Sequence record: OR769032.1
DNA length: 64,000 nucleotides
Source: Escherichia phage JoYop
Strand: one strand, 5' to 3'
Part shown: piece after piece, positions 17,186 to 17,533 of the stretch
Layout: every line of letters starts with the position of its first letter
Position numbering within the stretch: the stretch's first letter is position 1
Translations under genes and position numbers: made by a program
Notes under the pieces: generated by a model
Told to the model about the DNA's origin: nothing
The model's database searches: none
What the model saw: only the letters and a program-made list of their open reading frames with translations

Positions 17186-17533
17186 TTAATATGGCTTTGC
17201 ATCAAATTTTCTTTCAATTTCAGGTGTGAAATATAATTCTTTGCCGCGTTTGGAAAAGCGACCAATAATATGATAATTATTCTCATCAAACGTAATATTA
17301 CCAATATCCATAGCTTTCAGCCAAATATCGATATTTCTGTCAAGCTTTATATCAAAATTCCAATACGGAGAACTATTACCGAAAATAATACAAGCGGATT
17401 CAGTAAAACAACTACTATAAATCTTATCTTTAGGAACTACTAATTGATAGACACCTTTAATAAACTGAGGACCTTGCCACTTTGGCTGTTTAGCGTCTTT
17501 TTCTAATAGAATAGGGTAATAATTAAAATTCAT
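17186..17533 (-). CDS. hypothetical protein, 115 aa, inserted between frd and td
   Basis: ORF track; ATG overlaps last codons of frd, stop 13 nt before td start. Confidence 0.5.

Follow-up and report, generated by a model that had tools for sequence, protein, structure and literature searches.

In phage T4 the genes for dihydrofolate reductase (DHFR; frd) and thymidylate synthase (td) adjoin so closely that the frd stop and the td start overlap as ATGA (td start at 8113 and frd end at 8110 in the T4 record), a junction of which Purohit & Mathews and Chu et al. reportedly gave descriptions in 1984. In Escherichia phage JoYop (sequence record OR769032.1), a 64,000-nucleotide (nt) stretch of which was analyzed here and is called the window, an open reading frame (ORF) of 115 codons lies between the same two genes. 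Has this ORF been inserted into a T4-like junction, or is T4 the phage that has lost it? An earlier note, made from the sequence alone, chose the former and suggested a recently acquired accessory gene. Our analysis leads, with near certainty, to the opposite view: the ORF is a real, old and native gene, td.1, whose presence is the majority state, whereas T4 is in the minority and represents a reduced form.

Identity and coding status of td.1

The ORF is found at positions 17186–17533 on the minus strand, which the earlier note had not given. Judged by its product, it is not new: the T2H and T6 records (AY262132.2 and AY262134.2; proteins ABI48932 and ABI48938) carry the same gene under the annotation "td.1, hypothetical protein", and RB32ORF229c is the name of its homologue in RB14, RB32 and RB51. 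Td.1 of T2H and T6 also has 115 residues and is 99.1% identical to the window protein, with S49I as the sole difference. The exact window protein occurs on 10 public contigs; one of these, SRR27213192_29, matches the window with 100% identity over 5.6 kb and hence represents the same phage. The product matches the phrog_1928 profile (E 8.6e-36; residues 4–111 against profile positions 2–125 of 126) and a family hidden Markov model built here (E 1.9e-33). No paralogue of td.1 was found elsewhere in the 64-kb window or in 9 kb of T4.

Compared with T2H, T6 and Shfl2, td.1 shows 20–23 synonymous differences and a single non-synonymous one; 19–22 of the substitutions are at third codon positions, with one each at first and second positions. 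The resulting ratio of non-synonymous to synonymous divergence (dN/dS) is 0.007–0.009, and between the window and Shfl2 td.1 has a value of about 0.008, as against 0.028 each in td and nrdA and 0.092 in frd. Only in frame 0 does the codon usage of td.1 fit that of the phage's own genes. At 30.5%, the GC content of td.1 is similar to that of neighboring small genes. Overlapping ORFs on the plus strand (e.g., 17270..17443, 57 amino acids, aa) were dismissed, as conservation tracks the minus-strand frame. The earlier note had allowed that comparative codon analysis might reveal no coding signal; the signal is strong, and by its substitution pattern td.1 is a genuine gene under very strong purifying selection.

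Distribution and age of td.1 in Tequatrovirus

A tblastn search with Td.1 against 50,697 phage records located the gene in 579 of them, 362 at ≥90% identity, and at one place per record; carriers include T2, T6, RB14, RB27, RB32 and RB51. Tequatrovirus-like records number roughly 514–593 in total, and the slot between frd and td assumes three states among them: td.1 (~65%, ~362 records), an ORF of 68 aa (~25%) or nothing (~8%). The 68-aa ORF stands alone in the slot in ~135 records at ≥90% identity, including Dhakavirus JS98. The frequency of the empty slot with its ATGA overlap (~8% of 514 records) is taken from an evenly spaced sample of 60; T4 belongs to this group, and RB69 (Mosigvirus) has an empty frd/td junction as in T4. 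The synteny comparison across T-even genomes that the earlier note had called for was thus carried out and finds the ORF at the frd–td junction in most T-even phages. The note had held that such a distribution, together with an assigned housekeeping role, would speak against its reading; the distribution is as described, but no role has been assigned.

The 68–69-aa ORF (phrog_9550; no Pfam match) is unrelated to td.1. It is an alternative occupant of the slot in Tequatrovirus and Dhakavirus and, in other phages, the fourth gene of arrays in which it follows frd and two tandem td.1 homologues, A and B, and precedes td; it was observed at L013:2599–2805 (UTI-E4), L005:3173–3379, L009:3148–3354 and L038:3670–3879. 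Homologues of phrog_9550 with 43% identity exist in Phapecoctavirus (phAPEC8-like), so that this family, unlike td.1, is not confined to T4-like phages.

Synonymous divergence (dS) between Tequatrovirus lineages is 0.46 for td.1 and 0.43 for td. Because the two values are equal in effect and codon usage is native, td.1 appears to have been resident for as long as its neighbors have diverged. None of the marks of a foreign (moron-type) gene was seen: the composition is not atypical, the distribution is not limited to close relatives, and the divergence is not lower than that of the flanking genes. The recent acquisition proposed earlier does not agree with these values, nor with the occurrence of the family in the same slot of at least 10 other genera.

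Td.1 homologues in other genera

Homologues with 26–47% identity to Td.1 are encoded directly after frd in Entb_45 and PEi20 (both Kanagawavirus), JIPh_Kp122 (Jiaodavirus), S16 (Gelderlandvirus), P545 (Marfavirus), Moon (Moonvirus), CHI14 (Winklervirus) and EcS1 (Kagamiyamavirus). In all those loci except that of Jiaodavirus, the first homologue (A) is followed by a second ORF of 113–124 aa. This is a paralogue (B) of the first: BLASTP to the window protein reaches 3e-7, both match phrog_1928, and both share the motifs QKxW, HGxY and GRFxKxGxxxxF. By tblastn, more distant members were located beside the frd gene of Erwinia phage Cronus and of phages of Proteus, Morganella and Providencia; a further match, in Enterobacter phage CC31, is placed by its genome position in the equivalent region. 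Altogether, the family is present in ≥10 genera besides Tequatrovirus, and a script run over all fetched loci placed it between Frd and Td in 33/33 loci with a family member.

Two tandem copies are found in Kanagawa-, Gelderland-, Marfa-, Moon-, Winkler- and Kagamiyamavirus, in Erwinia phage Cronus and in one uncultured relative. The genes frd, A, B and td usually form a chain in which the stop codon of one gene overlaps the start codon of the next. The overlap is 1–20 nt for frd/A, and the annotations show overlaps for A/B and B/td as well. In family, motifs, slot and codon overlaps, S16 gp155/gp154, PEi20 ORF-253/252, Moon 254/253 and the CHI14 and EcS1 genes resemble td.1 of the window. The A copies of other genera are only 27–47% identical to window Td.1; the B copies are about 23–25% identical and carry an extra PTIxxYKxNP insert, and Tequatrovirus has no B. 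In some phages the 68-aa ORF (phrog_9550) is added just before td. Overall, most Tevenvirinae genera have A and B in tandem, Tequatrovirus has only A, and T4 and RB69 have neither.

The family is small and phage-only, with 41 clusters among 1.84 billion representative proteins, all of them standalone and 95–139 aa long. A profile scan of viral contigs used an 11-sequence alignment, the 46-sequence alignment being without a sufficiently conserved block. The nearest Td.1 proteins from outside Tequatrovirus are 63–66% identical, and their genes stand in frd–A–B–69-aa ORF–td arrays. One of the loci, on the uncultured contig SRR23814683_3322 (L038:2405–4739), encodes a Td.1 A protein that is 63% identical to that of the window and a Frd that is only 46% identical, which is the reverse of the pattern in the other genera (Td.1 27–44%, Frd 44–56%); as judged from these identities, either rates are heterogeneous or td.1 was exchanged between lineages long ago. 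In Erwinia phage Cronus (L028:2562–3291) the order of the paralogues is apparently reversed, with a long divergent copy first and an A-like copy second, and six-frame analysis finds frd split over two reading frames.

Origin of the empty junction in T4

In T2-type phages the end of frd reads ...GTATATAAATGAAAT and the beginning of td ...CTAAATGAAAC. The T4/RB69 junction, GTATATAAATGAAACAATAC, equals the T2-type sequence minus everything between two 9-bp direct repeats, TAAATGAAA; flanking genes and junction nucleotides on both sides are as in td.1 phages, and there is nothing between the genes. The empty junction of T4 would thus be a secondary deletion between the two repeats, which we consider the more probable course of events, and loss in T4 is favored both by this fit and by the occurrence of family members in distant genera.

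Several observations weigh against this polarity. Seven of the nine repeat bases are in any case set by the sequence contexts of the frd stop and the td start. RB69 shares the exact T4-type empty junction: an identical 20-nt sequence, TATAAATGAAACAATACCAA, is found in RB69 (L036:6360–6410) and T4 (L001:8086–8136), although RB69 Frd is only 58% identical to that of the window, which means that the empty allele is either old or has been exchanged between genera. Furthermore, the phages with the closest td.1 relatives have Frd proteins only 46–49% identical to that of the window, compared with the 58% of RB69. An old loss followed by an old re-gain of td.1 in Tequatrovirus is therefore possible on these comparisons. 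By its synonymous divergence, a recent origin is excluded under either polarity.

A link between the deletion of td.1 in T4 and the td intron with its I-TevI gene was considered and rejected, as T6, L018 and L020 carry both td.1 and the intron. The intron is annotated in T4 and T6 (as a two-piece td) and is also present in UTI-E4 and several metagenomic relatives, but is absent in T2H and the window; since td.1 occurs both with and without the intron, the empty state of T4 is not tied to it.

Predicted structure and conserved residues of Td.1

AlphaFold2 models of Td.1 were obtained with 12 sequences (predicted local distance difference test, pLDDT, 81; predicted template modeling score, pTM, 0.76) and with 46 sequences (pLDDT 92.2, pTM 0.85), and have identical secondary structure: strands 6–12, 27–34, 38–40, 48–50 and 62–64, helix 68–76, and strands 80–82, 86–96 and 99–104. 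The product is thus confidently predicted to be a compact β-barrel with one helix. Across the 46-sequence alignment W19, G91, K95 and G97 are invariant and L9, G27, Y29, F93 and F102 nearly so; window Td.1 has W19, G27, Y29, G91, F93, K95, G97 and F102, each of which is invariant or ≥90% conserved in the 46 sequences. The pattern would suit a structural scaffold or a binding surface, not a catalytic site.

Searches for known relatives agree with the earlier remark that the protein has no recognizable motif. Foldseek with the predicted model returned nothing from the PDB and only uncharacterized T4-like phage proteins from BFVD, and a profile search against all PDB sequences gave nothing below E 0.1. 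Pfam, NCBIfam and PADLOC scans of td.1, the B paralogue and the 46 family members were likewise negative: none of the 46 members matches a Pfam family at E ≤ 0.1, the known OB families (S1, CSD, SSB, tRNA_anti and similar) included, and td.1 has no match at E ≤ 0.1 to the defense-system models of PADLOC, a library that covers defense and not counter-defense. Weak structural matches of Td.1 are dominated by OB-fold domains (HIN, RPA/Teb1, S1, SSB), which the model may resemble in being a small β-barrel with one helix between early strands and a long C-terminal hairpin. The predicted fold, which has no significant match among solved structures, may be a new barrel variant. Literature searches on td.1 found no more than one citation of the GenBank records, made for nrdB comparisons, and no functional data; within the library searched, no paper deals with the gene.

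Possible function of Td.1

The gene belongs to the T-even nucleotide-precursor cluster gene 32–frd.x–frd–td.1–td–nrdA. Its overlap with frd in the window suggests translational coupling, and in eight other phages frd regularly overlaps the td.1 homologue, by 1–20 nt. We propose that Td.1 is a non-enzymatic binding or adaptor protein, that it is made together with DHFR through translational coupling, and that it acts on the Frd/Td module of deoxythymidine monophosphate (dTMP) and folate metabolism, for instance by binding Frd, Td or a ligand such as a nucleotide, a folate or mRNA. The phage would benefit from it but could do without it; the gene is dispensable in the sense that the T4 and RB69 genomes lack it. 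An old gene of the cluster with a binding role linked to Frd and Td is the best overall explanation at hand, though we hold it with somewhat less than even confidence, and the functional part taken by itself, in which a small barrel protein without enzymatic activity is produced along with Frd and Td and acts by binding, is put forward tentatively. A more specific version appears doubtful: here the phrog_1928 proteins, both A and B, would serve DHFR and thymidylate synthase as dedicated partners through translational coupling, as a small OB-like subunit that binds Frd, Td or their ligands (folate, nucleotide or mRNA) and tunes dTMP supply.

There is evidence that speaks against a role in the Frd/Td module. 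T4 is the phage in which the deoxynucleoside triphosphate (dNTP)-synthesizing complex was characterized, and T4 lacks td.1, so Td.1 cannot be a required component of the T4 complex. Gene order and codon overlaps are conserved across T4-like genomes, which makes position and coupling weak evidence of a functional link. Finally, Td.1 identity does not track Frd identity across genera: Frd is most similar in CHI14 and EcS1, yet these two have the least similar Td.1; the opposite holds for L038. Co-variation of Frd and Td.1 identity was therefore rejected as a sign of interaction, there being no such trend.

Alternative explanations

The insertion of a recently acquired, foreign accessory gene into the frd/td overlap, as read in the earlier note, is very improbable. 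The absence of td.1 from T4 and RB69 agrees with it, the 9-bp repeat flanking the td.1 block of T2-type phages can be read as a duplication made on insertion, and the T2-type td.1–td spacer contains a promoter-like sequence. However, a gene that roughly two in three Tequatrovirus records carry at the site, and ≥10 other genera in one or two copies, that equals td in dS and is native in codon usage and GC content, and whose closest homologues outside Tequatrovirus are the 63–66% identical proteins, with none that is close outside T4-like phages, is not what a recent arrival would look like. That td.1 is a free-standing homing endonuclease or another selfish mobile gene is scarcely credible. Five records (MZ501067, MZ501089, MZ501052, MZ501113 and OR271596) label it so, its neighborhood is rich in such genes (I-TevI in td, mobE-like ORFs), and its presence is polymorphic, but neither GIY-YIG, HNH, LAGLIDADG nor any other nuclease was matched even at E ≤ 1, nor was any in the 46 family members. 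The invariant residues are only W, G, K and G, and there is no conserved acidic or histidine residue; 115 aa leave no separate DNA-binding module; and the gene keeps to one fixed locus in every genome examined and is under strong purifying selection, whereas homing endonuclease genes often decay. In other records td.1 or its homologue is labeled "reductase" or "putative dihydrofolate reductase"; with no domain or motif to support them, these labels and that of putative homing endonuclease look like errors of annotation transfer.

Turning to function, Td.1 could be a host-takeover or counter-defense effector with no mechanistic link to Frd and Td, its position reflecting the frozen gene order of T4-like phages. 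It would then be counted with the numerous small T-even proteins, early or middle, whose targets are host or defense proteins. The polymorphic slot of Tequatrovirus (td.1, orf68 or empty) is typical of accessory genes, near-invariance within a genus and only 27–44% identity between genera would be expected of a protein that tracks a host-specific partner, and both the lack of an enzymatic signature and the dispensability in T4 and RB69 are compatible with such a role. Nevertheless, we regard it as somewhat unlikely: Td.1 resembles no PADLOC (defense models) or Pfam protein, the family is found only between frd and td whereas known anti-defense genes tend to move between loci and phages, and an arrangement in which tandem paralogues are joined through overlapping codons to the genes of two enzymes in the same pathway is rather what one sees with pathway accessories. 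The OB-fold likeness of the model raises the further idea of a nucleic-acid binder, either an RNA-binding regulator of the translation of frd, td or nrd mRNA or a single-stranded DNA binder at the interface of replication and dNTP supply, which seems improbable.

The frd–td region of the window phage

Features of the region are collected in Table 1. The earlier description of the junction was accurate: the td.1 ATG overlaps the last codons of frd, the product of frd is about 12 residues longer than in T4 (205 versus 193 aa; the two Frd proteins are 87% identical), and the td.1 stop lies 13 nt before td. By contrast, frd in T2, T6 and all other records inspected encodes 193–194 aa and stops 20 nt before td.1, which is followed by a td.1–td spacer of 44–45 nt. 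Two junction changes are thus specific to the window phage. As seen in the alignment, the junction sequences and the Frd translations, the frd end AAATGA of T2, T6, T4 and Shfl2 is replaced by AAAAACGA, and because this usual stop codon is lost, frd runs on for 12 codons, into td.1. In addition, the td.1–td spacer is 32 nt shorter than in T2, T6 and Shfl2 (TTAGCTTCATAAAATGTATTATAATTTATA...; full missing piece TTAGCTTCATAAAATGTATTATAAT; compared with L003:387–431 and L002:387–430). The window form of the junction is absent from the 25 best GenBank matches and from the other contigs with the identical protein, all of which span ~30 nt more. The junction would thus have been compacted further in the window phage, by loss of the frd stop with overlap into td.1 and by deletion of 32 nt of spacer.

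Table 1 Features of the frd–td.1–td region of the window
Feature	Position	Strand	Remarks
frd (dihydrofolate reductase)	17523..18140	minus	205 aa; phrog_316 at 3e-57, Pfam DHFR_1
frd 12-codon C-terminal extension	17523..17561	minus	usual TGA stop lost; reads through former 20-nt frd–td.1 spacer
frd 3' end/td.1 start overlap, 11 nt	17523..17533	minus	td.1 ATG 8 nt upstream of frd TAA
td.1 coding sequence	17186..17533	minus	ATG start, 115 aa, 348 bp including stop, 13.7 kDa, pI 8.5; phrog_1928 member
td.1–td spacer, 13 nt	17173..17185	minus	td Shine-Dalgarno AGGTG (17177–17181) retained
td (thymidylate synthase)	16312..17172	minus	286 aa, no group I intron, no I-TevI
Intrinsic-terminator-like hairpin	19795..19813	minus	just downstream of gene 32; only such site between gene 32 and nrdA

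The missing 32-nt piece contains a MotA-box-like sequence, TAGCTTCA, followed by TATAAT. By comparison with the known consensus, it looks like one of the middle promoters of T4 (MotA box plus –10), and if this putative MotA-dependent promoter is real, td of the window phage is without a promoter of its own and presumably relies on read-through transcription. A scan of 15700–20000 for terminator-like sites found one only, and none between frd and td, which makes co-transcription across frd–td probable; the genes frd.2, frd.1, frd, td.1, td and nrdA are probably in one transcription unit. A promoter-consensus scan gave 25 sites, close to the 17.6 ± 3.9 of shuffled sequence, and is uninformative in such AT-rich DNA; an Rfam scan of the window gave no match.

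Two further places in the cluster differ from T4. A stretch of ~0.5 kb between frd.1 and frd (18157–18674, minus strand) is absent from T4, in which 72 nt separate frd.1 and frd; it involves two small ORFs (18144–18386, 80 aa; 18398–18730, 110 aa, DUF7247), and by this comparison it is a second place in the cluster where T4 is the reduced state. Between nrdA and nrdB, and overlapping both at its ends, an ORF of 248 aa (12744–13490, minus strand) has a weak HNH match (E 7e-4, just below the Pfam cut-off) and a NUMOD1 match (E 1.2e-5), and probably encodes a homing endonuclease of the free-standing kind, at the position of mobE; it is longer than MobE of T4 (141 aa) and of T6 (213 aa).

Significance

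As a gene, td.1 is an annotated hypothetical one, and nothing points to an unusual mechanism. What the analysis yields besides is a corrected reference bias, the architecture of a slot with tandem paralogues, a very low dN/dS and a confidently predicted fold. Of the small genes of unknown function in the T-even cluster for nucleotide metabolism, td.1 is one of the most tightly constrained; it keeps to a single slot across the subfamily, is often duplicated in tandem, and its predicted fold has no close solved relative. The use of T4 as the yardstick makes a widespread and ancient gene look like an insertion, though it is T4 and RB69 that are reduced. Should the proteins of this family prove to be partners of DHFR and thymidylate synthase, T4 would be a naturally arisen deletion mutant, without a component that is still present in most of its relatives.
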